From assembly GCA_040752415.1 (NCBI GenBank), contig JBFMGU010000291.1, positions 1-12,883 of the forward strand: 12,883 nucleotides of DNA, written 5' to 3'. The DNA comes from Myxococcota bacterium. Its GTDB lineage: Bacteria; Myxococcota; JACRCW01. This document shows positions 1-12,680 of this stretch, in pieces (position 1 is the first letter of the stretch; each line of letters opens with the position of its first letter). Made by a program: the position numbers and the translations under genes. The notes below the pieces were generated by a model. That model did not search any database and was not told the origin of the DNA. It was given only the letters and a program-made list of their open reading frames with translations.

Positions 1-36
1 GTGGCGTCGGGGTAACGGTGTGGCACCGTCGGCCCC

Positions 37-92
37 GGGCTAGGCATTTCCTTCCACTTTGGCCACCTCCACGACGTGGAAATGCCTAGCCC
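37..92. repeat. Perfect 15-bp inverted repeat (GGGCTAGGCATTTCC-N26-GGAAATGCCTAGCCC); REP/MITE-like palindromic element
   Basis: Left arm 37-51 and right arm 78-92 are exact reverse complements, with CTAG in both arms. The region is non-coding. Confidence 0.85.
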
Positions 93-96
93 CTAC

Positions 97-252
97 GGCT
101 GCGGCGTCGGCTCACGCCCTGGATACCGGCTGGATACCACCGGCGTGACTGCTCCGGGGACACTACCGTGACGACGTCAGGTGACCAGGTAGTATTAGGT
201 GTTCGTCGGCTTCGCCGCACCAGCCTTGGACAACTTGTTCTGACGCAGCCTC
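97..252. other. Structured non-coding region, possibly a MITE or IS-end remnant
   Basis: Nested complementarity: GGCTGCG 97-103 with CGCAGCC 244-250, TCACGCC 112-118 with GGCGTGA 142-148, ACTACC 162-167 with GGTAGT 188-193. Direct repeat CTGGATACC at 119-127 and 130-138. The end ACTTGTTCTGACGCAGCCTC resembles IS1182-type terminal repeats (from memory). Confidence 0.35.
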
Positions 253-355
253 CCCACGGACGCCTTCGGGACCGCGCGGTTCCATGCGTCGAGCGGGTGA
301 CGCACGCGCCCAGCGTGGAGAATGCGCCCGCCCCAACGCGTGTTCCGGCGAAGTC

Positions 356-1120
356 ATGCTGCGCTTCCTGGTGCTCACCCTGGCGGCGGCCATGGTGCTC
401 CCGTTGCTGTTCTTCGAGGGCCTCTATGTTGGGCTCATGGCGGACATGGGAGAGCCGCGCCTGACCTGCCTGCACCCGCGGATTTCCGACGAGGTGGCGC
501 GGGCCCTGTGGGTCGCCGAAGGCAATGAAGGGCCCATTCCCGACGAGACCGAGGCGCCTTGGCCCGTGCTGGGCGTGGTGATGTGGCCCATCGGGAGGTA
601 CCTCGTCACCGAGGGGGCCTCCTCGCGTGGGCGCGCTCAACTGGCCAGCCTGGTTGCCAAGCGGATGCTCTGGAGTACGCACCGGCGGGTCTCCACCATC
701 CACAGGGTGGCGTTGACCATCTGGTTCGGTCGTCACGTCACGCCGCGGGAACAGGTTCAGCAGTACGCCGCCAACTCCTACTTCGGTTACGGTTGGTACG
801 GGATGGACACCGCGGCGCACGGTTATTTCGGCCGCGCGGTCGGCGAGCTGGAGCCTCACGAATACGCGCTGCTGGCCAGCATCGTCGGTGCTCCGCGCGC
901 ACGCGATCCCTGGTGTCGCTCCGACAAAGCGAAGCACCGTCGCGACCATGTCCTGCGGAAGCTCCACGACGCGGGATGGCTGGACAGGTCGACCCTGCAA
1001 CACGCCCTGGGCCAACCGCTGGGCACCAACATCCCCACGCCGCAGCGCTGTCCGGAAGACCGATCCCTTCCGCTCGCAGTGATCTCCGACGAGAAACACG
1101 TCCATTTCCCTGCGGCTTGA
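356..1120 (+). CDS. Transglycosylase-domain (GT51 / monofunctional peptidoglycan glycosyltransferase-like) membrane protein with degenerate catalytic motifs, 254 aa
   Basis: N-terminal hydrophobic helix MLRFLVLTLAAAMVLPLLFF. QYAANSYFGYGWYGMDTAAHGYFGRAVGELEPHEYALLASIVGAP matches the GT51 pattern YLNxxYFGxGxYGxxAAxxxYFGKxxxxLxxxExAxLAxxxxxP, and AKHRRDHVLRKLHDAGWL matches the C-terminal RRxxVLxxMxxxGxI. ATG 356 is preferred over 284 because it begins the hydrophobic helix. Confidence 0.8.
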   Translation: MLRFLVLTLAAAMVLPLLFFEGLYVGLMADMGEPRLTCLHPRISDEVARALWVAEGNEGPIPDETEAPWPVLGVVMWPIGRYLVTEGASSRGRAQLASLVAKRMLWSTHRRVSTIHRVALTIWFGRHVTPREQVQQYAANSYFGYGWYGMDTAAHGYFGRAVGELEPHEYALLASIVGAPRARDPWCRSDKAKHRRDHVLRKLHDAGWLDRSTLQHALGQPLGTNIPTPQRCPEDRSLPLAVISDEKHVHFPAA

Positions 1121-1177
1121 CGACTGCTGCATATTGGTGAAATGGTGTGTATCATGAAGAAAACGGCCGTTGCATCA
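1117..1177 (+). promoter_or_regulatory. Putative sigma70-type promoter and TetR operator region
   Basis: TTGACG 1117-1122, 18-nt spacer, TGn-AATGGT (1138-1146), ending 7 nt before ATG 1154, with no Shine-Dalgarno. Imperfect palindrome TGAAAT-GGTGT-GTATCA 1138-1154 and perfect palindrome AACGGCCGTT 1162-1171. Locally AT-rich. Confidence 0.45.
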
Positions 1178-1774
1178 AAAACCCGGCCCTATGACAACCG
1201 GCTCCGCCAGGAGCAGGCGTCGGAGAACCGCCAGCGCATCCTGGATGCGGCCCTGACGCTGTTGGCGGAGGAACCGGGGAACGCGTTCAGCGTGCAGGCG
1301 GTGGCGCTTCGGGCGGGGGTCTCGGTGCCCACGGTGTGGCGGAACTTCGCGGGGCGGGATGCGCTGCTGGACGCGGTGCAGACAGAGAGCCAGCGCCGCA
1401 TGGGCGCCCCGCCGTGGCCCAGGGACATTGAAGAGATCCCTTCCTGGGTGCCAGCGCTGTTCTCATTCTTCGAAAAGAACCTCGCAGCGGTGCGCGCGGC
1501 GCGGAAGATGGCGGCGCTGCGAGAGATCCACACCCGCGGCCGCGCCGCTCGCGACCGTCAGCTGAGGAAGCTGGTGGAGGCGGCCACGCCCGGAATGTCT
1601 CCCGCGCAACAAGCCGCGTGGACGGGCGTCTTCCGCGCCTTGCTGAGCTCACAGACCTACCTCGACCTGATGGACCGCTTTGGCGCCAACCGCGCGGCCG
1701 CCGAGGAGGTGGTGATGCAGGCAGTCGCGGCAACGATCACGGCCCTCAAGGGCCAGGGGAGGGGAAAGCCATGA
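1154..1774 (+). CDS. TetR/AcrR family transcriptional regulator, 206 aa (alternative start 1142)
   Basis: RPYDNRLRQEQASENRQRILDAALTLL followed by the HTH FSVQAVALRAGVSVPTVWRNFAGRDALL. Typical TetR size. Confidence 0.93.
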   Translation: MKKTAVASKTRPYDNRLRQEQASENRQRILDAALTLLAEEPGNAFSVQAVALRAGVSVPTVWRNFAGRDALLDAVQTESQRRMGAPPWPRDIEEIPSWVPALFSFFEKNLAAVRAARKMAALREIHTRGRAARDRQLRKLVEAATPGMSPAQQAAWTGVFRALLSSQTYLDLMDRFGANRAAAEEVVMQAVAATITALKGQGRGKP

Positions 1775-3429
1775 GTCCACAGCCACCCGGACCGGGAAGC
1801 TGGACGCTGGATGCCACGCATTGCGAGCGCGCCCACAGCGGCTACCTCAGCTCGCGCTTCGCGGAGAACTACACACAGGGCATGCGCGAGAGCATGGCGC
1901 GTTACGGCGCGCTCCTGGACACGCTGGAGTGCCGTCTCGTCGACGGATTCACCTACACCTCTCCCCGCCCGCTCGGCGCTCCGCCGGGGGCCCGGACACC
2001 GCCCGCGTGGCTGTTCTGGATGTTGGTCCGCCTGGTGCCCCCGCTGCGGGCGCGCACCGCGGTGGCGGCGGAGGTGATGCGGACCCGTCGGTGGCGGGAG
2101 GATGTGCACCACTTCTCCACCGTGTTGTGGCCGCGTTGGCAGCAGCGACTGCGCGCGCTGGCGCAGCAGGAGCCCACCCGGCTCGACGACGCCGCGCTGG
2201 GTGAGCACCTGCGCGAATGCGACGCCGCGCTGTGGGACGGGCTCGGGGAACACTTCCAGCTCAGCCTGGCCACCATCGTCCCGGTGGGGGACTTCGCGGC
2301 CCACGTCGTGGAATGGACCGGCTGCACGCCCGGTGACGTCATGGCGCTGCTGCGCGGACACTCGCCGGCGTCGTTGGATGCGCTCCAGACGTTGGACGCG
2401 GTGGTCTCCGCGCTGCGCACCCGTCCTGACGCACGCGCCTGGCTGGATGCTCCACCCGCGGAAGCCCTGGAACGCCTCCGTACCGACGAGGGCGAGCTGG
2501 GCGCGGCGGCGCGCACGTGGTTGTGGGAGGTGGGCGAGCGCGTCCTCTCCGGTCACGACGTCCACGAGCCCCGCGCCATCGAGGTGCCGGGCGTGATGGT
2601 CCGTTCCCTGGTCCAGCGGCTGAACGCGCCCGCGACCACGTCGCCGCAGGAGGACCCGGTGGCCGCGCTGCGCACCCGTGTCCCCGCCGAGCACCGCGCC
2701 ACGTTCGACGAGCTGCTCCACGAGGCGCGCCTGGCCCACCCGCTGCGCGACGGTCGCTCGACGGTGGACTTCTGGACCATGGGGCTGGCCCGTCGTGCGC
2801 TGCTGGAGGCGGGACAACGGCTGACCACCCGGGGCCGCCTGCGCGCGCCGGAGCACACCCTGGACCTGCGCCTGGACGAGGTGCTGCAGCTGCTCGCGGG
2901 AGCCACCTCCCCCGACGCCACGGAAGCGGAGCGCCGCTACACCACGCGCAGCCGCGCCACCTGCAGTGAGATGCCGGAGCTCCTCGGTCCGCCCCCGGAA
3001 GCGCCTCCTCCCGCCGAGCTGCTCCCCGCGCCGGCAGCGCGCGTGGCGCGGGCGATGAACCTCTACATCGACCTCATGTTCCGCGAGGCGGATCGACGTC
3101 GTGACGACAACACCGTGCGGGGCATTGCCGCCAGTCCCGGTCGCACCGTGGGGCAGGCGCGCCTGGTGCTGGGGCCGGAGGACTTCTCCCGCATTGTCGC
3201 CGGAGACGTGCTCGTGGCCCGGCTCACCACGCCCGCCTACAACTGTGTGCTCCCGTTGCTCTCCGGCATTGCCACCGAGCGCGGGGGATTGCTCTCGCAC
3301 CCGGCCATCGTCGCGCGCGAGTACGGAATGCCCGGCGTGGTGGGCGCGCGCGGCATCCTGGAGCTGATCCGTGACGGCGACCGCATCGAGGTCGACGGCG
3401 ACGCGGGAACCGTGCGGGTGCTGCGATGA
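1771..3429 (+). CDS. PEP-utilising enzyme subunit: large helical substrate-binding region plus C-terminal swivelling phospho-His domain (rifamycin phosphotransferase / phenylphosphate synthase alpha / CreH-like), 552 aa
   Basis: C-terminal VRGIAASPG...GDVLVARLTTP...GIATERGGLLSHPAIVAREYGMPGVVG...IRDGDRIEVDGDAGTV is the PEP-utilisers mobile domain, with His510 at 3298-3300. N-terminal WTLDATH. ATG 1771 overlaps the TetR stop (ATGA) and follows the SD-like GGGGAGGGG. Confidence 0.88.
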   Translation: MSPQPPGPGSWTLDATHCERAHSGYLSSRFAENYTQGMRESMARYGALLDTLECRLVDGFTYTSPRPLGAPPGARTPPAWLFWMLVRLVPPLRARTAVAAEVMRTRRWREDVHHFSTVLWPRWQQRLRALAQQEPTRLDDAALGEHLRECDAALWDGLGEHFQLSLATIVPVGDFAAHVVEWTGCTPGDVMALLRGHSPASLDALQTLDAVVSALRTRPDARAWLDAPPAEALERLRTDEGELGAAARTWLWEVGERVLSGHDVHEPRAIEVPGVMVRSLVQRLNAPATTSPQEDPVAALRTRVPAEHRATFDELLHEARLAHPLRDGRSTVDFWTMGLARRALLEAGQRLTTRGRLRAPEHTLDLRLDEVLQLLAGATSPDATEAERRYTTRSRATCSEMPELLGPPPEAPPPAELLPAPAARVARAMNLYIDLMFREADRRRDDNTVRGIAASPGRTVGQARLVLGPEDFSRIVAGDVLVARLTTPAYNCVLPLLSGIATERGGLLSHPAIVAREYGMPGVVGARGILELIRDGDRIEVDGDAGTVRVLR

Positions 3430-4223
3430 GGGCGGTGCCGCTGCACCAGGCCGACGAGGTGGCGCGCTACGGCGGAAAGGCCGCGGGCCTGGCGCGCTGC
3501 GTGGCGGCGGGGTTGCCCGTGCCAGAAGGCGTGGCGTTGTCGTGGCGGCTGGTGGAGGCGTGGCTGGAAGGCGCGCCGGAGGCGTTGCATGCGCTGGCTG
3601 CCGTCGAGGAGCTGCTGAGGCACGGGCCGGTGGCGGTGCGTTCCTCCGCCGTGGGTGAGGACGGGGAGCGCGCCAGCTACGCCGGTCAGCACGCCACGGT
3701 GCTGGGGGTCCGGAGCATGGAGGCGGTGCACGCCGCGGTGCGCACCGTGCATCTCTCGCGACGCTCCTCCGAGGCCTACCGCGCGCGTCGCGAGCTCGAC
3801 GGTGAGTTGCGCATGGCGGTGGTGGTGCAACGCCTGGTGCCGGCGCGTTGCGCGGGCGTGCTGTTCACCCGCTGCCCGGTCAGCAAGCGTGACGAGCGCG
3901 TGGCGGAGGTCAACTGGGGCCTGGGTGAAACGGTGGTCTCCGGGGAGGCGCTGCCGGATCGACTCCGTTGGCACCGGGGTGGCCACAACCTCCGCTGCGA
4001 CGTGGGCGACAAGGACGTGCGCGCCGTGGTGGGCCCCGAGGGGCTGACCCATGAGACGGTTCCGCCGGAGCTCCGCGCGGCGCCGTGCCTTGGCCTGCGG
4101 GAGGTCCAGGCGCTCGAACAATTGGCGGCCACGTGCGAGTCGCTCTTCGGTCCTTCCGACCTGGAGTTCGCCGTGGAGGCGGGCCACTCCTGGCTCCTGC
4201 AGTGCCGACCGGTGACCACATGA
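3426..4223 (+). CDS. Stand-alone PEP/pyruvate-binding (PPDK_N, ATP-grasp) subunit, phenylphosphate synthase beta / CreI-like, 265 aa
   Basis: Motifs GGKAAGL, GLPVPEG, VAVRSSAVGEDGERASYAGQH, VVVQRLV, AGVLFT, WGLGETVVSG, DLEFAV and LLQCRPVT. ATGA overlap with the upstream gene. Confidence 0.92.
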   Translation: MRAVPLHQADEVARYGGKAAGLARCVAAGLPVPEGVALSWRLVEAWLEGAPEALHALAAVEELLRHGPVAVRSSAVGEDGERASYAGQHATVLGVRSMEAVHAAVRTVHLSRRSSEAYRARRELDGELRMAVVVQRLVPARCAGVLFTRCPVSKRDERVAEVNWGLGETVVSGEALPDRLRWHRGGHNLRCDVGDKDVRAVVGPEGLTHETVPPELRAAPCLGLREVQALEQLAATCESLFGPSDLEFAVEAGHSWLLQCRPVTT

Positions 4224-5200
4224 GCGCAACCCTGATGCAGATTGAATCCGTCCACGCGGTGCTGGTGGCCGGCCGGGACACGGGCCTGTTGCAGCGCCTT
4301 GCCGCCGCGCCCGCCACGTCGGTGAACCTGGCCCGTGAGCTCGGCCTGGACGCCGTCGCCACGGAGCGCGCGCTGGAGGTGCTGCACGCCTGGGGCATGG
4401 TGGAGCGTGAAGGTGGGGTGTTCCGTTGCACGTCGTGGTTTGCCAACGAGCTGCGCGGGCCGGAGGGCCTGGCTGGCGCGGGACGCATCTGGGCTGCCAT
4501 GCCCAACTACCTGCGCACCGGATCCACGCTGATGGGTGAGGGCACCGCCAACCGTGACCGCGCCTACCCCGAGGTGGTGCCACGCCTCGCCGCCATGTTC
4601 GACCAGGCCGCGCGCGCCTTTGCCGTCGAGGTGGCGGCCCGGTTGCCGCGCGGCGCCGTGATCCTCGACGTGGGCGCGGGCAGCGCGCCGTGGTCGCTGG
4701 CGGTGCTGGACGTGCGCCCCGACGTGACACTGCGCCTGCTGGACCTGCCCCAGGTGTGTGAGGCCACGCGCGCCGCCGCCACCGCGCGAGGTCACGGCTC
4801 CCGCGTGGACATCCTGGCGGGCGACTACATGTCCGCCCCGCTGCCCGTCGAGACCCTCGACCTCGTCATTGCCGCCAACGTGCTGCACCTGGAGGGTGAG
4901 GAGCGCGCGGCGGCGTTGGTGGCGCGCCTGGCTCCCACGTTGCGCGCGGGCGGCTGGCTGGCGGTGGTGGACGCGCTGGCGGGTGACGACGAGGCTGGTC
5001 GGCGCGCCCATGCTGCGTACGCGTTGCACCTCGCGCTGCGGCTGCCCGGCGGCTATCCGCACCTGCCCGCCACGCTGGCGCGGTGGATGACGGCGGCGGG
5101 ACTCATTCCACGGGAGCCCACCGTGCTCTCCCGGGAGACCATGGTGCTGGGCGTGGTGTGGGGGCAGCGTCCTCGGGACCTGTACCTGGGAGGGGACTGA
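4220..5200 (+). CDS. SAM-dependent class I O-methyltransferase (Methyltransf_2 type, with N-terminal winged-helix dimerisation domain), 326 aa
   Basis: N-terminal GLLQRLAAAPATSVNLARELGLDAVATERALEVLHAWGMV. SAM motif I ILDVGAGSA, then LLDLPQV, AGDYM and DLVIAANVLH. ATG 4220 overlaps the upstream stop (ATGA). Confidence 0.92.
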   Translation: MSATLMQIESVHAVLVAGRDTGLLQRLAAAPATSVNLARELGLDAVATERALEVLHAWGMVEREGGVFRCTSWFANELRGPEGLAGAGRIWAAMPNYLRTGSTLMGEGTANRDRAYPEVVPRLAAMFDQAARAFAVEVAARLPRGAVILDVGAGSAPWSLAVLDVRPDVTLRLLDLPQVCEATRAAATARGHGSRVDILAGDYMSAPLPVETLDLVIAANVLHLEGEERAAALVARLAPTLRAGGWLAVVDALAGDDEAGRRAHAAYALHLALRLPGGYPHLPATLARWMTAAGLIPREPTVLSRETMVLGVVWGQRPRDLYLGGD

Positions 5201-6984
5201 TGAGCAGCCAGGCGCCGGTGGGTCGGGTGGTGCTGGTCTTCACCGACGTGCAGGGAAGCACCCAGCTCTGGGAGGAGCTGCCCGAGGAGATGCGCACCGC
5301 GCTCTCCATGCATGACGAGGTGATGCGCCAGCTCCTTGCCGAGCACAACGGTTACGAGGTGAAGACCGAGGGTGACGCGTTCATGGCCGCGTTTGCGCGG
5401 GTGGAGGACGCGGTGCGCTGGTGCGTGGAGACGCAGCGCGCGCTGGTGCTGGTGGATTGGCCCGCGGGCATTGCGTCCCGGGGAGGACTGCTGGTGCGCG
5501 CCGGGATCCTCGCCGGAGAGGCGGACTGTCGACCCAACCCGCTCACCGGGCGCATGGACTACTTCGGTCCCACCGTGAACCGCGCGGCGCGCGTGGCGGG
5601 CGCGGCACACGGAGGCCAGGTTCTCGTCGAGGAGAGCACGTTCCAGGCGCTGGAGCCGTTGGATGGCACGGTGTGCCAGGCGCTGGGGAGCTACCGCTTC
5701 AAGGGCTTGCGGGAGCCGCTCGGTCTCGTCCAGGTGGTGCCCGCGGACCTGGCCGACCGTCGCTTCGGGCCGCCGCGCACCGAGTCCTCCGGTGACTCCA
5801 CCGTGGTGACCCACAGCGGCACGTCCCTGGACGTGGAAGCAGCGGTGCGGGCCGCCGCGGATGGGCTCCTGGCGCGCGGCACGGTGCGACGCAACCGCGG
5901 CCTCGCCCACCTGGCCAGCGAGGATCTCCGTGCCGCCTGCTCGTGCGCGCGGCTGGCGGGGCTGGCGGGCGTGGAGCGTCGTGCGGAGCTGCTGCTGATT
6001 GAGGCGGACGGTGAGCTGACACCCCCGGAGCGCGTGCGTCGGCTCGAGGAGCTCCGGGACCGCGCGGAACACTCGCGCGACGACTGGGTGGCCGTGCGCG
6101 CGGCGCTCCAACTGGGCTCGGCGTGGATGACCGCGGGAGACCTGGCCCGCTGCGCCAGCACGCTCTCCGCCGCCCGCGTCCGCGCCGAGGCCAGCGGTGA
6201 CCCGGATGCCACCGCCGCCGCGCTCCTCGCGGAAGCCCTCCTCGCCCGACGACGCAGCGACCTGGACGAGGTGGCCGCCAAGGCGCAGCGCGCGCTGGAG
6301 GTGGTGGAGCAGGCGGGTCTCCGTCGTCACCGCAGCTCGGCGCTGGTGGAGCTGGCGCGGGTGCGGATCTGGCGTGGGGATCCGGCGGGAGAACCCTTGC
6401 TGGAGCGGGCGCTCAAGGAGGCGCGCCAGGCCGGCGACGCGCGCGAGATCTCCGTGGCCATGCTGGAGCTGGCCAGCGCGCTGATGCGTCGTCACGCGTG
6501 GAATGATGCGCTGCGGTGGGTGCGTCGGTCGCAGCAGCAGGCCCGCTCCATGGGGTGGCAGGAAGGTGTGGCGCGCGGGCGTCTGGTGGAAGCGCTCTCA
6601 CTGCTCTTCCTCGGCGACACCGAAGCATGCGTGCGCCTCCTGCGTGAAGTCGACCTCCGCGCCATCGCGGTCTACGGCGGGATCAGCGTGGCGGCGCACC
6701 GGCTGCACCTCGCGGCGGCATTCGCGCAGCAGGGCCGGAACGACGAGACGCAGTGCGAGCTGGCCCTGGCGCGCGAAGCGTTGTCATTCGCTCCCGCGCA
6801 CCCGCTGTGGACGATGCTGGGGGAGGTGGAAGCGCTGTTGCGGCTCCGCAATGGCGACGTGGTGGGCGCGCGGGAACGTCTCAGCGCGCTGCCGGACCGT
6901 CCCCGGATGCTCGCGCCGTTGTTGGAAGCGGCCACGGCCCCTGGTCGCGGCGACCTCACCCGGCCGCTGGGCACCGTGCCGTGA
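5200..6984 (+). CDS. Class III adenylate cyclase with C-terminal TPR-like helical repeats, 594 aa
   Basis: FTDVQGSTQLWE (D16), GYEVKTEGDAFM (K55, D59) and RMDYFGPTVNRAAR (D120, N127, R131) supply the metal-binding, adenine-specifying and transition-state residues. The C-terminal ~370 aa are Ala/Leu-rich helical repeats. TGATG overlap with the methyltransferase stop, with SD-like GGGAGGGG upstream. Confidence 0.92.
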   Translation: MSSQAPVGRVVLVFTDVQGSTQLWEELPEEMRTALSMHDEVMRQLLAEHNGYEVKTEGDAFMAAFARVEDAVRWCVETQRALVLVDWPAGIASRGGLLVRAGILAGEADCRPNPLTGRMDYFGPTVNRAARVAGAAHGGQVLVEESTFQALEPLDGTVCQALGSYRFKGLREPLGLVQVVPADLADRRFGPPRTESSGDSTVVTHSGTSLDVEAAVRAAADGLLARGTVRRNRGLAHLASEDLRAACSCARLAGLAGVERRAELLLIEADGELTPPERVRRLEELRDRAEHSRDDWVAVRAALQLGSAWMTAGDLARCASTLSAARVRAEASGDPDATAAALLAEALLARRRSDLDEVAAKAQRALEVVEQAGLRRHRSSALVELARVRIWRGDPAGEPLLERALKEARQAGDAREISVAMLELASALMRRHAWNDALRWVRRSQQQARSMGWQEGVARGRLVEALSLLFLGDTEACVRLLREVDLRAIAVYGGISVAAHRLHLAAAFAQQGRNDETQCELALAREALSFAPAHPLWTMLGEVEALLRLRNGDVVGARERLSALPDRPRMLAPLLEAATAPGRGDLTRPLGTVP

Positions 6985-7111
6985 TGCCGTGATTTCCCCA
7001 GCAGCAGGCGAAGGTGCGGCGCGGCCATGGCTCACGCTCTGAACGCGGGGCCGGTGGGACGTCGACGTCGTGAGGGCCGCATGCTCAGCTCTCACCCACC
7101 ACCGGAAAGTG

Positions 7112-7174
7112 TGACCCGGGCTTCCCGGGTTGCATGTCGCGAGGACTGACTCCGGTGCGCGCCGGGGTTACATG
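7112..7174. repeat. Tandem pair of related palindromic units TGACYCSGG-loop-CCSGGGTTRCATG
   Basis: TGACCCGGG-CTT-CCCGGGTTGCATG (7112-7136) and TGACTCCGG-TGCGCG-CCGGGGTTACATG (7147-7174). Each can fold into a hairpin using G-U pairs. Confidence 0.6.
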
Positions 7175-7257
7175 CTGGCGTCCCCGAGGCGCTCGACGTG
7201 AACGAGGGCACGAGCACTCGCGTGTGAACGACCCTCACCCGCGTGAAAGGGGAAGGA

Positions 7258-8274
7258 ATGGAGACGACAGTCAACCCGGAGGACATGGTCGAAGGGGGAC
7301 GGGGGCCGTTGGTCCTGGAGGTGCGCTGCACGGGCTGTGGCGTGACGACACCCCTGGCGACGCCCTGGGTCCTGATGCATCCCGAACCCGAGGACGCCGA
7401 CTGGGACGGTGTCTCCCCGGGGCGGATCTTCACCTGTCCGTCCTGTGGGGCCGCGGACCGGTACCAGCTGACGGCCGCGGCCTGGCGGACGCTCAGGGAG
7501 GAGAACGAGCGCGCCCAAGCGGGCGAGGAATCCCGCGTCATCCTGGGGGCGGCCAGGCTGTGGGACGGAACGTTGCACCGGCGCCCCACCGAGGCGCTGG
7601 CGCATCTGCGGGAGCTGGCGGCAAGACAACCGCCGAACCCCGAAGCCTGGCGTCGGCTCGGAAACTTCTGCGAGCGCTTCGAGCTGCAGGACGAGGCGGT
7701 GGCGGCCTGGACGCGCGCGGTGGAGGTGGGGCCGGAGGAGTTTGAAGCCGCGTGCTCCCTGGCGCAGCATCACTCCAGCCTGAACACGGACCAGGACGCA
7801 CTGGCGGCGAGTCGTTACTTCGTCATGGCCCTGCAGCGATTCCCCAAGGTCGCCGCCTCGCTTCCTCACCGCGAGTACTTCGCTGCCTTCCTCGCGCGCA
7901 GCCTCTTCGAGTTCGCGGACCAGTCCCCGGAGCCCCTGGTCCTCGAGGCGTTGTGGGCCGGTGGCGTCGTCGGCGATCAGGTCGTTGTCAACGTGAGCTC
8001 GGTGGAGCTGCAGGCCATCACCTTGCGGGGTGGGCTGGAGCGCTTCCTGGCCACGGCGGAGCTCGTCGGTCTGCGCCTGACCAACAATGTCCCCGAGGAC
8101 GAGGTGACGATCCTGCACGACCTCATCGAGTCCGGTGGCTCGGCGAGACGGGGCTTCATCCGCGGCGCCGCCGCGCGTCCGGTGGTGGCCTCGCCGCGCC
8201 AACGGCCGAATGAGCCATGCGCATGCGGGAGCGGCAAGAAGTACAAGAAGTGTCACGGCGCAGGCGCACGGTAG
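7258..8274 (+). CDS. SEC-C motif protein with N-terminal Zn-ribbon (CxxC...CxxC) and a TPR-like segment, 338 aa
   Basis: CTGC and CPSC pairs. TPR-like PNPEAWRRLGNFCERFELQDEAVAAWTRAVEVGPEEFEA. C-terminal RPNEPCACGSGKKYKKCHG is a canonical SEC-C motif. Purine-rich SD (AAGGGGAAGGA) before ATG 7258; alternative GTG at 7243. Confidence 0.88.
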   Translation: METTVNPEDMVEGGRGPLVLEVRCTGCGVTTPLATPWVLMHPEPEDADWDGVSPGRIFTCPSCGAADRYQLTAAAWRTLREENERAQAGEESRVILGAARLWDGTLHRRPTEALAHLRELAARQPPNPEAWRRLGNFCERFELQDEAVAAWTRAVEVGPEEFEAACSLAQHHSSLNTDQDALAASRYFVMALQRFPKVAASLPHREYFAAFLARSLFEFADQSPEPLVLEALWAGGVVGDQVVVNVSSVELQAITLRGGLERFLATAELVGLRLTNNVPEDEVTILHDLIESGGSARRGFIRGAAARPVVASPRQRPNEPCACGSGKKYKKCHGAGAR

Positions 8275-8389
8275 TCCGCGCGTGGAAAAGGGTCTGCGAA
8301 ACCACCGCGAGCATGAGAAGATGCCCGGAGACGACGTGGGTACCCGCAATCCTTTCGCGGCAACCCGCGCGTCCTGGAGCACCTCGACG

Positions 8390-9325
8390 ATGATCAAGCC
8401 TCCCGGTTCCAGCTTTCCCAGCGTCTCGCGCAACGTCTTGCAGGAGCTCTCCACCACCTCCGCGGAGAAGCCCACCACCCCCACACCCGCCACGCCGTGG
8501 CCGGAGACCGCCACAGCCGAGCCCGCCGCGCCGCGACCGCGCGCCAGTGCCGCGGACCAGGGGCGCGCGCGTGCCATGGCGCGGAACCAGGGGGCTGCGC
8601 TGCAGCACCAGCTGGCCCGCACCATCCAGGAGTCGGAGGAGCGCGCCATCGTTGGCGGCAAGAACAACGTCGGGAAGATGGTGGACCTGGGCGGGGATCC
8701 CAGGAACGGGCTGGCATTGACCATCCACGGGATCAACGGCGCACCCGAGGACGTGGACGCGCTCAGCAACCACGCGCTGGGCCAGGGCGCGCAGACCCGC
8801 ACCTTCGCCTACGACGACAACTACCGTCGCCTCACCGACACGGCCGCGGACCTCTCGGGCCAGATGGCGGGCTGGCTCCGGGACAATCCCGGCAAGCCGC
8901 TGACGGTCCACGCGCATTCCATGGGTTCGCGCGTGGCGCTGGCGGCGTTGGATGACCTCAACCGCCAGGGGCTGCTCGAGGGGCGCCAGGTGGATTTCAA
9001 CATGGTGGCGCCACCCCTGGGTGGGTACTCGTCCGCCGACGGCGCACGGATGGCACCGGACTTCCTGGGCAACGCCATCAAGAACCTGCGCCCCTCCAAG
9101 GACATGGGAACCTCGTCGTCATTCCAGGAGACGCTGGAGGCGGCGCGCCTGCCGCCCAACGTGAACGTGCGTGTGTTCACCGCCGGGCAGGACACCGTGG
9201 TGGACTACTCCAATCCGCACTTCCAGACGATCGTCGACAACCTGCGCGCCCAGGTGATCCCGCTGCCGGAGGCGGACCACGTCAACGCAGTGGATGCCGC
9301 GGCGCGGTGGCTCGCGGACCGTTGA
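8390..9325 (+). CDS. Alpha/beta hydrolase (lipase/esterase-like) with Pro/Ser/Thr-rich N-terminal extension, about 311 aa
   Basis: Oxyanion motif IHGING, nucleophile HAHSMG, MVAPPLGG, putative acid AGQDTVV and His ADHVN. ATG 8390 follows GGAG at 8376-8379. The upstream starts at 8135 (overlapping the SEC-C gene) and 8321 are less likely. Confidence 0.82.
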   Translation: MIKPPGSSFPSVSRNVLQELSTTSAEKPTTPTPATPWPETATAEPAAPRPRASAADQGRARAMARNQGAALQHQLARTIQESEERAIVGGKNNVGKMVDLGGDPRNGLALTIHGINGAPEDVDALSNHALGQGAQTRTFAYDDNYRRLTDTAADLSGQMAGWLRDNPGKPLTVHAHSMGSRVALAALDDLNRQGLLEGRQVDFNMVAPPLGGYSSADGARMAPDFLGNAIKNLRPSKDMGTSSSFQETLEAARLPPNVNVRVFTAGQDTVVDYSNPHFQTIVDNLRAQVIPLPEADHVNAVDAAARWLADR

Positions 9326-9334
9326 CCCACGGCG

Positions 9335-11095
9335 CTACGGCCTTCCCGCCTCCGCCGCCACCACGCCGCGCACGTATTCCTCCAGGGCGCGCGCCGGCTC
9401 GTTGATGCGGGCGTGGTGTCTTCCCACGTGGTTGCGCTCATCCTGCCGCACCGGTCGCGACGAGAAACCCGGCGCCTGTTTCACCGGGTCGGGGCGCTTG
9501 GGTCCTTCGCGCGGTTCCCACACGGTGTCGATGATCCAGGCGAGCCGGTGCGTGGCCTCGGGGGTGGCGCGCACCAGGAGTCCCATCCCCAGCACCAGCG
9601 CCGCGGCGGTCCACAACGTCACCGCGCTGCGCCCCAACGACGACGCCCGTCCCAGCGTCACCGCCCGCCCCACGAACACCGCCCACAACGCGGACAGCAC
9701 CAGCGCCGTCAGCGGCACCACGGCGGAAGCAAAGCCCTTCCACCCCAGCAGCGTTCCCACCGAGTACGGGAACAACCCCGCGGTGAGCAGCGGCAGCGTC
9801 ATCTGGAAGAACGGGTGCATCAGCTCTTCCGGGTATCCGCTGTGGGTGGCACACGCGAGCCCCACCACCACGACGCTCCACACCACGCCCCCGCGCACCG
9901 CCGCGCCCAGCACCGGCCACGGTGATTTCTCGGTGGTCTCCAGCGTGTGCAGCGCCACGGCGAAACCGAGCGTGAAGAGCGGCACGGCGGGCACCAGGTG
10001 GCGCGGTCCCAGCGACCAGCCGCCCAGCCAATAGCCGAACCCCGCGGCGAAGCTGATGTAGAGCAGGCCCGCCAGCAGCAGCACCCAGCCCTCCACCGCC
10101 CGACGAGACCGCATCAGCAGCACGCACCCCACCGGCCACAAGAGCAGGTACGGCTGGAAGTAGAAGAGCCCGCGCGCCGGGGAGAACAGCGTGCCGCCCA
10201 GGCCCTCCAGCGTGGGGAGCGAGACGCCCATGAGGCCCTTCTTGTGCACGCTGCGGAAGTACGGGTTCTCGATGAACGCGTATCCCGTGGTCAGCGGGCC
10301 ACCGAACGCGGCCTGGTGGTAGGCCATGCCCAGCCCCAGCGGCACCAGGCTCCCCACCAGCATGCCCAGCAGCAGCCGCACCACCGCGCGCGGTGCGCCG
10401 CCACTGTCGCGCCAGGCCATGCCCGCGCCCAGCAGGCCCACCATGCCTATGAGCAGCGTCGTCGGGTACTCGGTGATGGCGGCCCACCCGCCGGCGAATC
10501 CCGCGAGCATGGCCCACGAGAAACTGCTCTTGCGCGCGGCATGCACCGCGGCCCACAGCGCAAACACCACGAGACACGCCGCCAGCTGGTGCCCAAAGAA
10601 CAGCAGCTCGAAGGGCACACCCACGCTGCCCAGGCCCCACGCAATCAGCGCCACCCGTCGCGCCGCGCGCGTCACCATGAGCAGCACCAGCAGGCTGTCC
10701 AAGCACGCCAGCGCCAGGAACGTGGGCAGCACGCCCAGCAGCACGCTGCCCCAGGCCAGCAGCTTCTGGGTCTCCACCTTCCCGCTCGACGAGAGCGCCT
10801 TCATCACCGCGTACACCGGCACGAGCAGGAAGCTGCTGCCGGGGGCCTTGTCGCAATAGAGGTGTCCCTCGCGCACGGCGCGGTCCATCACCCAGCCGTG
10901 CTCGGCCTCCACCTTGTCCAGCACCACGGTGTGATGGTCGACGAGCGCGCGCGTCAGGTAGGTCCGCACCAGCGGATTGGGGCTCTTGAGCTCCTCGAAG
11001 TACGGGTGATTCCACAGCGGGAGCAGCACCAGCAGGAGGATGAGCGCCCAGGGCCTTCCGCCCGCCGCGCTCGACGTCAGCAGCAAGGGCCTCAT
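9335..11095 (-). CDS. Polytopic membrane protein, GT-C fold glycosyltransferase-like (ArnT/PMT-related), 586 aa
   Basis: One TM helix, then an extracytoplasmic loop with DRAVREGHLYCDKAPGSSFL, then more than 10 hydrophobic segments. Motifs FGGPLTTGY, LFSPARGLFYFQP and WLGGWSLGPRHLVPAVP are typical of bacterial GT-C-like proteins. ATG 11095 overlaps the upstream stop (ATGA). Confidence 0.72.
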   Translation of the reverse strand: MRPLLLTSSAAGGRPWALILLLVLLPLWNHPYFEELKSPNPLVRTYLTRALVDHHTVVLDKVEAEHGWVMDRAVREGHLYCDKAPGSSFLLVPVYAVMKALSSSGKVETQKLLAWGSVLLGVLPTFLALACLDSLLVLLMVTRAARRVALIAWGLGSVGVPFELLFFGHQLAACLVVFALWAAVHAARKSSFSWAMLAGFAGGWAAITEYPTTLLIGMVGLLGAGMAWRDSGGAPRAVVRLLLGMLVGSLVPLGLGMAYHQAAFGGPLTTGYAFIENPYFRSVHKKGLMGVSLPTLEGLGGTLFSPARGLFYFQPYLLLWPVGCVLLMRSRRAVEGWVLLLAGLLYISFAAGFGYWLGGWSLGPRHLVPAVPLFTLGFAVALHTLETTEKSPWPVLGAAVRGGVVWSVVVVGLACATHSGYPEELMHPFFQMTLPLLTAGLFPYSVGTLLGWKGFASAVVPLTALVLSALWAVFVGRAVTLGRASSLGRSAVTLWTAAALVLGMGLLVRATPEATHRLAWIIDTVWEPREGPKRPDPVKQAPGFSSRPVRQDERNHVGRHHARINEPARALEEYVRGVVAAEAGRP

Positions 11096-11943
11096 GGGAT
11101 GAGCTCCCCGCCCAGGCAATTGAGCTGGCGTGCCGCGTCGGTGGTGGAAAGCGAGAGGCGCAGGGTGCGCGCGCCAGTGGGAATGGCGGTATCCAACGCG
11201 CAGCGGCCATCCCCCGCGTTGCTGCACGCCTTCTGCTCCACGGTGTTCCCGTCGACCGCGGTGGTGACGTTGATGGGCGGGCGACCGGGCTCACCGCGCG
11301 CGTCGTCGGCGTATTGCAGCCAGAGCGCGGCCCGGCTCACGCCGGTCACCGGAATGTCCACGTGCATGGTGTGGTCCCGCACAGGGTGCGACCACAGGCA
11401 CGCCACCAGCCGGTCACGTGCCTTGATCACCACCGGCCCCACGTACTGCCAGCCCTCCTTGCCGCAGCGCACGCCGCCGCTCGCGTGCGGTGGGCGGCAC
11501 GGCTGCACCGCCCCATCCTTCTCCACGCTGACAACGAGGGACTCCATCCGCTTCACCAGCAGTTCCCCCGCGTGCGGCGCCGTGGCCTCAACGACACCAC
11601 CCTCGCGCAACTCCCGCCGCGGCGCGCCCAGCGCCACCGGGTCCAGCCCCTCGCCGACGAGGAAGAAGCGCGGCTGGGGGAACGTGCTGAGGTCGGGGAG
11701 CGTGCCGGCGGGGTCCACCACCACGGTGGCCAGCGCGCCGAACGGACGCATGAGCCCACCGGGATCAGGCCGCGCGCTGAGGCGGGAGGAGAGGATGATG
11801 AGGTCGCTGGGGGTGGCGAGGTCGCGGAGGACGCGCGCGGCGGCGGCGGAGTGTCGCTCGGTGGTGGACCACCAGAGGGAGGCGGGCAGCGCGAAGAGGC
11901 CGCCCACCAGCGCCACCGCACCGCTCAGTGCCCGGAGGTCCAT
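11092..11943 (-). CDS. Membrane-anchored or secreted hypothetical protein with Cys-containing beta-rich C-terminal domain, about 283 aa (alternative GTG start 11955)
   Basis: N-terminal hydrophobic segment ALSGAVALVGGLFALPASLWW. C-terminal part QPC...VRCGKEGWQYVG...ACLWSHP...AC...RC...NC contains six Cys. Its stop is coupled to the GT-C-like gene. Confidence 0.75.
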   Translation of the reverse strand: MDLRALSGAVALVGGLFALPASLWWSTTERHSAAAARVLRDLATPSDLIILSSRLSARPDPGGLMRPFGALATVVVDPAGTLPDLSTFPQPRFFLVGEGLDPVALGAPRRELREGGVVEATAPHAGELLVKRMESLVVSVEKDGAVQPCRPPHASGGVRCGKEGWQYVGPVVIKARDRLVACLWSHPVRDHTMHVDIPVTGVSRAALWLQYADDARGEPGRPPINVTTAVDGNTVEQKACSNAGDGRCALDTAIPTGARTLRLSLSTTDAARQLNCLGGELIP

Positions 11944-12032
11944 GGGGGCGCGCACCGTCCCACCCGGCTGGTCGGCGCGTCAACGAACTCAGCCAGCCGG
12001 GAGCAGAGGCTCGTGCGCCAACGCCCCTCCGG

Positions 12033-12563
12033 TTATTCGAACAACTCCCGCACCGCGCAGCGAAAACCGGGGATGAGGGCGGGGGCTTCAAGGACGTCGT
12101 CGCGCCCCAGAATCCGCACGTGGTCCGGTGGCGTCACGACGAGGACACGCTGGGGTTCCGGGTCGGCCAGCCAGACCACCTGTGAGCCCGCGGCCAAGAA
12201 TGCCAGGGCCTTCTCAAGCAGCTCCGTCGGAGACTGGGAGTCTCCAACGACTTCACAGACGAGCTCCGGGGCGCCATCCAGCCGGCCATCGGCGCCTTTC
12301 CCGATGGGAAGGCGCGTCCGCCGCAGGAGTCCGACGTCGGGACCGCGCAGTGTGTCGGGGTTTGTCGCCAGTTTGCTTCCCGGGTCCCCGGCGCCGACCA
12401 CCCAGTCTGGGCGCGCCTTGCAGTACTGCTTGAGCAGCGACGTCAAAGACGCAACCACCATGGCGTGGCGCCAGGTAGTCCTTGTCACGGGAACCATCTC
12501 CCCGGCGACCAGCTCGCCTGGCTCGCGGTCAGGGTCCAGGCCTGCCACGTCCTGGAAGGTCAT
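12033..12563 (-). CDS. Uma2 family (DUF820, PD-(D/E)XK) putative endonuclease, about 176 aa
   Basis: GELVAGEMV, RHAMV, RGPDVG, APELVCEVV, EKALAFLAAGSQVVWLADP and LIPGFRCAVRELF match Uma2 motifs. The start codon is uncertain. Confidence 0.92.
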   Translation of the reverse strand: MTFQDVAGLDPDREPGELVAGEMVPVTRTTWRHAMVVASLTSLLKQYCKARPDWVVGAGDPGSKLATNPDTLRGPDVGLLRRTRLPIGKGADGRLDGAPELVCEVVGDSQSPTELLEKALAFLAAGSQVVWLADPEPQRVLVVTPPDHVRILGRDDVLEAPALIPGFRCAVRELFE

Positions 12564-12680
12564 GGGGCTGGGAGAGGCCCATCGGGATTGCAGGCGTCGT
12601 GAGCGGGCCACGACCTGGAGTGCGGCGGGCCCTCGCCGCCCTGGTCAGCGCCAAGTGCGTCCTCAACGGAGGTCGCTGAA

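Follow-up and report, generated by a model that had tools for sequence, protein, structure and literature searches.

A two-component RPH-like dikinase clade, so far uncharacterised, with a cognate TetR regulator and exchangeable partners, joined in one Myxococcota genome by an adenylate cyclase

Background

Whether a second-messenger enzyme can belong to a cassette whose other products are predicted to modify a small molecule is the question raised by five co-directional genes at positions 1154-6984 of a Myxococcota contig. The contig (C214), analysed here over its entire 12,883 bases and referred to below as the window, belongs to a genome bin (G000) of 11.0 Mb in 520 contigs. The five genes are predicted to encode, in order, a TetR-family repressor (P0001), the two subunits of a split dikinase (P0002 and P0003), an O-methyltransferase (P0004), and a class III adenylate cyclase with a helical tail (P0005). 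An earlier note on this DNA had proposed that they form an integrated system, in which one ligand would derepress an operon that modifies it and, through the cyclase, would also give rise to cyclic AMP (cAMP).

New at this locus is a clade of two-component RPH-like dikinases that has yet to be characterised. The clade comes with a TetR of its own and with partners that can be exchanged, and here also with an extra cyclase. RPH (rifampin phosphotransferase) is an antibiotic-inactivating enzyme (PMC4844700), and one of clinical relevance. Its two-component relatives have to date been investigated solely in the role of entry kinases for phenolic growth substrates. The kinase clade is found widely among soil bacteria, in several phyla, as a compact cassette together with its own TetR and one of three partners.

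Five overlapping genes

All five genes lie on the forward strand in open frames, and each overlaps the next, as had been claimed for the locus: ATGA spans the first three junctions (1771-1774, 3426-3429 and 4220-4223), and TGATG the fourth (5198-5202). The gene for the 206-residue P0001 runs from 1154 to 1774, with an alternative in-frame ATG at 1142. It is followed by genes for the 552-residue P0002 (1771-3429), which joins a substrate-binding domain to a C-terminal phospho-His swivel, and for the 265-residue ATP-grasp, or nucleotide-binding, subunit P0003 (3426-4223). The last two genes encode the 326-residue P0004 (4220-5200), a predicted class I S-adenosylmethionine (SAM)-dependent small-molecule O-methyltransferase, and the 594-residue P0005 (5200-6984), in which a cyclase domain (approximately residues 6-185) precedes a TPR-like helical solenoid (approximately residues 212-562). 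The GC content at third codon positions (GC3) of the five frames, 0.82-0.86, matches the third-position bias of genuine genes in G000. The domain assignments originally made from the letters alone were borne out by Pfam, where TetR_N, PEP-utilizers (the swivel), PPDK_N (the ATP-grasp domain), Methyltransf_2 and Guanylate_cyc each exceed the curated cut-off in P0001 to P0005, respectively. In a scan of the same five proteins no NCBIfam model was at or above its cut-off, and thus the names RPH, PigC/RedH and PEP synthase are not applicable to them.

Overlaps of one or four bases between stop and start codons are frequent in operons, and favour co-transcription without being unusual by themselves. 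Co-transcription of the cyclase gene with the four genes upstream is very likely, to judge from the one-base overlap, the GGGAGGGG sequence 5-12 bases before the ATG at 5200, and the lack of any intergenic space. This ATG is also likely to be the start codon of the cyclase, because the N-termini of full-length homologues are no more than a few residues away from it and because GGGAGGGG is found at that distance upstream.

A split dikinase related to RPH

The domains of the dikinase are distributed over two chains encoded by adjacent genes with a four-base overlap. PPDK_N is found alone in P0003 (165.3 bits, cut-off 27), and the PEP-utilizers swivel is at the C-terminus of P0002 (71.9 bits, cut-off 23.1; residues 477-546). 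The swivel contains the motif T502-E-R-G-G-L-L-S-H510, in which T502, G505, G506 and H510 do not vary in either of two P0002 homologue alignments (25 and 26 sequences), and in which His510 is the predicted catalytic residue. The motif has the form T/S-x-x-G-G-x-x-x-H, with the His within about 50 residues of the C-terminus. In the accessible part of the paper describing HpeHI, the same form is given for the swivel His of the subfamily that includes HpeHI, CreHI and PpsAB (PMC12167813).

Ahead of the swivel, P0002 resembles the rifampin-binding domain of RPH, and not the TIM barrel that binds phosphoenolpyruvate (PEP) or pyruvate. A profile of 25 P0002 homologues matches RPH-Lm, the Listeria enzyme, twice, once over the rifampin-binding domain and once over the His swivel, with profile positions 182-398 aligned to RPH-Lm residues 511-739 in the rifampin-binding region. 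The AF2 model of P0002 (pLDDT 93, pTM 0.91) likewise finds its best solved counterpart in RPH-Lm (5FBT; E 3.5e-19, TM 0.62, 626 columns, 17-20% identity). Near-full-length structural matches are to RPH-Lm only, with PEP synthase, PPDK and Enzyme I matching the swivel alone. Among solved chains, P0003 is closest to 9GOJ (E 9e-26), which the available text of PMC12167813 identifies as HpeI, the ATP-grasp component of the hydroxyphenylethanone dikinase HpeHI. These profile and structure matches uphold the proposal that genes 2 and 3 encode a split ATP-grasp/phospho-His phosphotransferase of the RPH/PpsAB/CreHI kind, and on their basis the pair is classed as a predicted two-component RPH-like small-molecule dikinase.

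Three more specific names were considered for the pair and set aside. The RPH equivalog models score 86.3 bits for P0002 and 109 bits for P0003 against a cut-off of 999 (NF041857), and 67 and 74.5 bits against a cut-off of 1700 (NF000283). For PigC/RedH (NF052631/NF052632), scores are 77.6-137.5 bits, with cut-offs of 1300-1350. PEP synthase (TIGR01418) reaches 74.4 and 112.8 bits, with a cut-off of 739.75, and no PEP-utilizers_C domain was detected in the Pfam scan.

The kind of enzyme is already described, the clade to which P0002 and P0003 belong being the part that is uncharacterised. Small-molecule dikinases known in two-component form are HpeHI, CreHI, AcvAB and PpsAB, as far as the available portions of the sources go (PMC12167813, PMC12624787, PMC9618137). 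As in these enzymes, one chain of the pair in the window has an RPH-like substrate-binding domain and a C-terminal His swivel, and a separate chain carries the ATP-grasp domain. The gene for the His subunit comes first and that for the ATP-grasp subunit second, which is also the order that the gene names of the known enzymes suggest. For the subfamily, the accessible text of PMC12167813 describes a mechanism that proceeds through a pyrophosphoryl-His and then a phosphoryl-His, yielding AMP and inorganic phosphate (Pi), and the absence of the regulatory Thr of PEP synthase. The corresponding position in P0002, two before the His, is likewise not a Thr (Leu508, with Met in HpeH), and a Ser precedes the swivel His, as the published description in the same excerpts has it for PpsA and CreH.

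There are also differences from the characterised enzymes. P0002 and P0003, with 552 and 265 residues, are shorter than HpeH and HpeI, for which the available text gives 71 and 40.6 kDa (PMC12167813), and in its alignment to HpeI, P0003 is short of some 75 N-terminal-lobe residues (residue 67 aligns with residue 142). Unlike the HpeHI group, the pair has no catabolic genes nearby, its partners being a TetR regulator, an O-methyltransferase and a cyclase. P0002 and P0003 together have the three domains of RPH (PDB 5FBS/5FBT/5FBU and 5HV1-3; PMC4844700), and presumably its swivel mechanism too. Whereas RPH carries its ATP-grasp, rifampin-binding and swivel domains on one chain, in that order, the domains here are divided between two chains, with the ATP-grasp gene in second place. 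Elsewhere in the bin, at G000:C506:26750-28150, there is a second and distant P0002-like gene, with 29% identity over residues 73-551 in an open frame of 897 amino acids, which is probably a single-chain RPH-like enzyme.

A conserved TetR-kinase-methyltransferase module

Of 8,000 scored candidates, 202 are P0002 homologues at E <= 0.001, the closest of them 54% identical. The genes around such homologues were surveyed at 169 related loci, comprising 80 from species-representative genomes, 80 from metagenomes, and 9 Myxococcota orthologue regions, by scanning six-frame translations with profiles built from P0001-P0005 and from fused forms. A full-length P0002-type gene is present in 103 loci, or 100 once the duplicates L133, L135 and L224 are dropped. 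The ATP-grasp gene is directly downstream, as in the window, in 45 of the 100, and directly upstream in 30; the remaining 25 have no adjacent ATP-grasp gene, many of them being on cut contigs.

In a maximum-likelihood tree (IQ-TREE quick search, LG+G4, SH-aLRT support only), loci with the gene order of the window form one clade of 51 rows with a support of 100. Within this clade, the position that follows the ATP-grasp gene is taken by a cyclic nucleotide (cNMP)-binding domain, a drug-type MFS transporter, or an O-methyltransferase. The window falls in a subclade of five rows (SH-aLRT 95), together with L111 (a TetR-pair-methyltransferase locus, 51% identity), L113 and L115/L116. The other members carry the TetR gene, plus the methyltransferase gene wherever the contig extends far enough; in the case of L115/L116, two cut contigs jointly show TetR, the pair and the methyltransferase. 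Clusters of TetR, kinase and methyltransferase genes are also found in three further Myxococcota genomes (L224, L229 and L230).

The regulator travels with the kinase pair. P0001 has a TetR-family helix-turn-helix domain at residues 29-75 (PF00440, 41.8 bits, cut-off 24), and its subfamily, recognised at 140-240 bits by a profile built from P0001, adjoins the pair in many loci and in both gene orders. The cognate TetR gene is upstream in methyltransferase-type loci and in loci without an accessory gene, and, in the clade of opposite gene order, it is also present with most members. For the methyltransferase (Methyltransf_2, 53.1 bits, cut-off 22.3), members of the P0004 subfamily adjoin the kinase in 11 other loci, with scores of 252-371 bits. 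The two functions are joined in one database protein, P0138, a methyltransferase::ATP-grasp fusion in which residues 15-302 are 34% identical to P0004 and residues 328-590 are 47% identical to P0003. In L229 (G283:C47, Myxococcota), the order is TetR, His-subunit, methyltransferase and ATP-grasp, the same order as in the P0138 fusion.

The view that TetR and methyltransferase are genuine partners of the kinase is thus sustained by other genomes, and the three form a conserved module that is patchy and crosses phyla. No full-length P0002 orthologue was found in the 60 nearest genomes, and in the phylum sample orthologues are present in only 10 of 400 other genomes. A patchy distribution, combined with the crossing of phyla in the company of its TetR, suits a self-contained accessory cassette.

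The solved relatives of P0004, all of them distant, are natural-product O-methyltransferases, MfnG, RedM, MmcR and DnrK among them. Such relatives would be expected if the operon were to tailor a metabolite of the organism itself, by phosphoryl activation as in PigC/RedH and by O-methylation, and both the weak NCBIfam likeness of the pair to RedH and PigC and the host genome, an 11-Mb metagenome-assembled genome from the Myxococcota, would be in keeping with that role. However, the RedH/PigC scores (77-137 bits) are a small fraction of the cut-offs (1300-1350), and the window contains no polyketide synthase (PKS), non-ribosomal peptide synthetase (NRPS) or other biosynthetic genes, with flanks that differ in each relative examined. 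The presence of the module in 10 of the 400 genomes, and its passage between phyla together with its TetR, also speak against tailoring, which is very improbable indeed.

Transporters and cyclic nucleotide-binding partners

The partner genes of related clades provide a further indication of function. A gene for a drug-type MFS transporter directly follows the kinase pair in 12 loci, among them L039, L043, L044, L054, L056, L223, L225, L227 and L228. In addition, 23 ATP-grasp::MFS fusions occur among the 120 longer P0003 homologues listed (P0125-P0137, for instance), several of which are labelled EmrB/QacA by the source. Such fusion and adjacency suggest coupled modification and transport, and the antibiotic-inactivating role described for RPH fits the MFS and TetR context of the clade. 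On the evidence of its partners, the clade looks like a reservoir, as yet unexplored, of kinases that act on small molecules and possibly modify antibiotics.

The characterised two-component enzymes offer a different role, in which the pair would act as an entry kinase that phosphorylates a phenolic growth substrate, trapping it and starting its degradation, in the manner of HpeHI, CreHI, AcvAB and PpsAB. TetR-type regulators are a usual feature of clusters for aromatic catabolism. HpeI is the closest solved relative of P0003, and the two-component architecture and the His motif are shared with the characterised phenolic dikinases (PMC12167813). Against a catabolic role, no carboxylase, phosphatase, cytochrome P450 (P450) or ring-cleavage genes are present in the window or in the flanks of 12 relatives, where the genes are mutually unrelated and where PKS and NRPS genes are absent as well. 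The partners that do recur are methyltransferases, drug-type MFS transporters and cNMP-binding domains. Furthermore, P0002 and P0003 are shorter than HpeH and HpeI, to go by the sizes quoted above, and the tree places loci with a long, interrupted ATP-grasp gene in a separate group with long branches. Xenobiotic or antibiotic handling is preferred over catabolism because of the MFS pairings and fusions, the precedent of RPH, and the lack of catabolic genes in the window and in the 12 relatives; a catabolic entry kinase is a decidedly unlikely alternative.

The third recurrent partner is of a different nature. In 22 loci a cNMP-binding domain is associated with the ATP-grasp subunit, either fused to its C-terminus (14 loci) or encoded by a separate small open reading frame (ORF) directly after it (8 loci). 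These loci form one tight clade on the tree (18 rows, support 100), with members labelled as Actinomycetota, Acidobacteriota, Cyanobacteriota and Pseudomonadota. For the fused protein of L050 (L050:1461-2720, + strand), all 120 of the homologues listed carry PPDK_N and cNMP_binding, at identities of at least 79%, and other loci with this partner include L034-L036, L042, L051, L123 and L124. In P0245, the cNMP-binding domain retains an intact F-G-E-x-A-L ... R-S-A sequence, which we take to be the cNMP phosphate-binding cassette. A sister part of the kinase family is therefore evidently under cyclic-nucleotide control, insofar as domain content can indicate it, and the partner pattern points to a kinase family controlled by cNMP. 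No cNMP-binding domain was detected by Pfam in P0003 of the window.

The adenylate cyclase

P0005 has the features of a functional class III cyclase. Its Guanylate_cyc domain scores 90.2 bits (PF00211, cut-off 21.9; residues 6-169), and its predicted fold gives TM values of 0.77-0.91 to solved targets, with Foldseek matching the N-terminal domain to the adenylate cyclases GRESAG4 of trypanosomes and Ma1120 of mycobacteria. Class III cyclases rely on two metal-binding Asp residues, a Lys and an Asp that contact the substrate, and an Asn and an Arg that act on the transition state. The canonical residues are present in P0005 as D16, K55, D59, D120, N127 and R131, all of them invariant in homologue alignments, and the protein is very probably catalytically competent.

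The remainder of P0005 had been described as a TPR region, a description that failed at the level of Pfam (TPR_12 at 17.5 bits, below the cut-off of 30.1) and fared better at the level of structure. AlphaFold modelling from eight full-length homologues (mean pLDDT 84) gave about 19 paired helices at residues 212-562, a region for which Foldseek finds a counterpart in LGN, a TPR protein (5a7d_H, E 1.4e-7). The model thus supports a TPR-like solenoid as the probable form of the tail. Cyclase-ATPase-TPR-HTH proteins are found in mycobacteria. Within the phylum sample, P0005 is matched best by ORFs of approximately 1050-1100 amino acids, in the cyclase domain alone and at 52-58% identity. Like P0005, these large Myxococcota class III cyclases have a tail of helical repeats, but P0005 is only 594 residues long, and Pfam detects the cyclase domain alone. 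Full-length relatives of P0005 (563-597 amino acids) are 30-42% identical to it, and in the phylum sample the alignment extends further in four ORFs of about 600 amino acids (31-35% identity), found in G013, G022, G029 and G036. An anti-phage cyclase system, such as Pycsar or CBASS, was considered and rejected, there being no PADLOC family for P0001, P0002, P0003 or P0005, and only a generic SAM-fold assignment for P0004.

The cyclase does not recur with the kinase. Nine other methyltransferase-type clusters (L041, L049, L082, L111, L118, L125, L178, L229 and L230) have at least 1.8 kb of downstream DNA, and no cyclase domain was found in the fetched flanks of any of them. The gene that follows the methyltransferase varies among clusters, and may be an opposite-strand gene, a cytochrome c-like gene or a transposase. 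A strong cyclase match occurs anywhere in the flanks of only 3 of the 169 related loci, and in none of these does it adjoin the kinase: in L050 the cyclase is 2.4 kb away, past an opposite-strand gene; in L164 it is 1.8 kb upstream with three genes intervening; and in L091 it is on the opposite strand. Among the loci examined, a cyclase beside the kinase is found in G000 alone, and it represents a lineage-specific addition rather than a part of the conserved module. The earlier note had named as the outcome that would count against it a gene-neighbourhood search in which homologous clusters are generally without the cyclase, and this is what the comparison returned; the cyclase as a component of a conserved system has to be given up.

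A fully integrated system of five genes, in which the TPR region of the cyclase would dock to one of the enzymes (kinase or methyltransferase) or to the compound, and exposure to ligand would be converted into a cAMP signal, nevertheless has points in its favour. The TGATG overlap and the GGGAGGGG ribosome-binding site at the methyltransferase/cyclase junction, and the intact catalytic residues of the cyclase, would be consistent with it, as would the link between the kinase family and cNMP, with its 22 loci, the 120 of 120 listed fused homologues, and the intact cassette of P0245. In L050, moreover, the fused form of the kinase lies 2.4 kb from a cyclase gene. The neighbourhood comparison argues the other way, with the cyclase missing from all nine of the other methyltransferase-type clusters, and with the strong flank matches at 3 of the 169 loci neither adjacent nor, in one case, on the same strand. 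Cyclase homologues of about 600 amino acids are also found in genomes that have no P0002 match (G013, G022 and G029) or a match to the swivel domain only (G036), and P0003 has no cNMP-binding domain. Lastly, G000 contains 34 Guanylate_cyc matches, so that cyclase genes are plentiful raw material, and adjacency by rearrangement is plausible. An integrated five-gene system is, on this evidence, improbable, and the cyclase of the window is better regarded as an example of a second-messenger enzyme captured into a cassette, a single occurrence that is a lead rather than a system.

Of the proposed coupling to cAMP, the conserved cyclase falls away, and a link to cNMP stands in a different form, in the sister clade. 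The connection between the cNMP partner of that clade and the cyclase of the window is suggestive only. A bolder proposal, which we consider rather unlikely, is that the kinase clade is wired to cNMP in both directions: cAMP or cGMP would act allosterically on the kinase in one large sublineage, by way of the cNMP-binding domain fused to the ATP-grasp subunit or beside it, whereas in the window a ligand would, by way of TetR and the cyclase, lead to a cAMP broadcast of xenobiotic or antibiotic exposure while the compound itself is phosphorylated and methylated. Within the literature covered, which includes papers on HpeHI, AcvAB, MarK and RPH and leaves most subscription journals outside, there is no description of cNMP-binding fusions of this kind or of a TetR-kinase-methyltransferase-cyclase cluster.

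A probable inducible operon for modification of a xenobiotic or antibiotic

The explanation that best accounts for the locus, and that is probably correct, is an operon whose induction leads to modification of a xenobiotic or antibiotic and, in this lineage alone, to co-expression of a cyclase. In such an operon, a hydrophobic ligand would release the TetR repressor, allowing expression of the genes downstream. P0003 would bind ATP, and His510 on the swivel of P0002 would take up the beta-phosphoryl group. His510 would then carry the phosphoryl to the substrate-binding domain of P0002 and transfer it to a hydroxyl of the substrate, with substrate-phosphate, AMP and Pi as the products. O-methylation of the same compound, or of its product, would be the contribution of P0004. 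Since derepression by the ligand would also result in more cyclase, coupling to the second messenger would occur through co-expression.

Several observations weigh against this explanation. A scan of positions 1-7400 found no sigma-70-like promoter, and an inverted-repeat search around the TetR start (1040-1240) found none. The gap between the TetR gene and the co-directional transglycosylase gene before it is just 33 bases, so that TetR control of the operon is an assumption. The nearest solved relative of P0003, HpeI, is a catabolic phenol-type kinase, and fits catabolism equally well. The strong ribosome-binding site and one-base overlap ahead of the cyclase are the pattern expected of selected coupling. 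Finally, the locus survey does not extend to P0006, P0008 and P0009, which at 53-54% identity are the closest homologues of P0002, and beside which a cyclase may be present.

Flanking genes and the end of the transcript

The transglycosylase gene upstream of TetR (284-1120, + strand; PF00912, 57 bits) stops 33 bases ahead of the TetR start. A divergent minus-strand ORF at 86-1132 was set aside as the upstream gene, having a lower GC3 and no family, as compared with the higher GC3 and the Transgly domain of 284-1120. Downstream of the operon, 258 non-coding bases separate the cyclase gene from the next gene. This interval includes a GC-rich hairpin at 7109-7135 (+ strand), a candidate transcript end without a U-tract, which was identified as a local stem of 12 pairs by RNA folding and begins 125 bases past the cyclase stop codon. 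Taken as a whole, the sequence downstream of the cyclase shows no folding advantage over shuffled sequences (z -0.93). A consensus terminator scan of 1-7400 found no plus-strand terminator, the sole terminator-like site being a minus-strand one within the TetR gene, which is fewer than in shuffled sequences.

Beyond the hairpin, the gene at 7243-8274 (+ strand) encodes TPR repeats and a C-terminal SEC-C motif. It is followed by an ORF at 8135-9325 (+ strand) with a weak likeness to alpha/beta-hydrolases. Two minus-strand ORFs, at 9335-11227 (630 amino acids) and 11092-11955 (287 amino acids), have strong coding GC3 values of 0.89-0.90 and match no Pfam or PADLOC family. The gene nearest the end of the window, at 12033-12611 on the minus strand, encodes a Uma2-family endonuclease.

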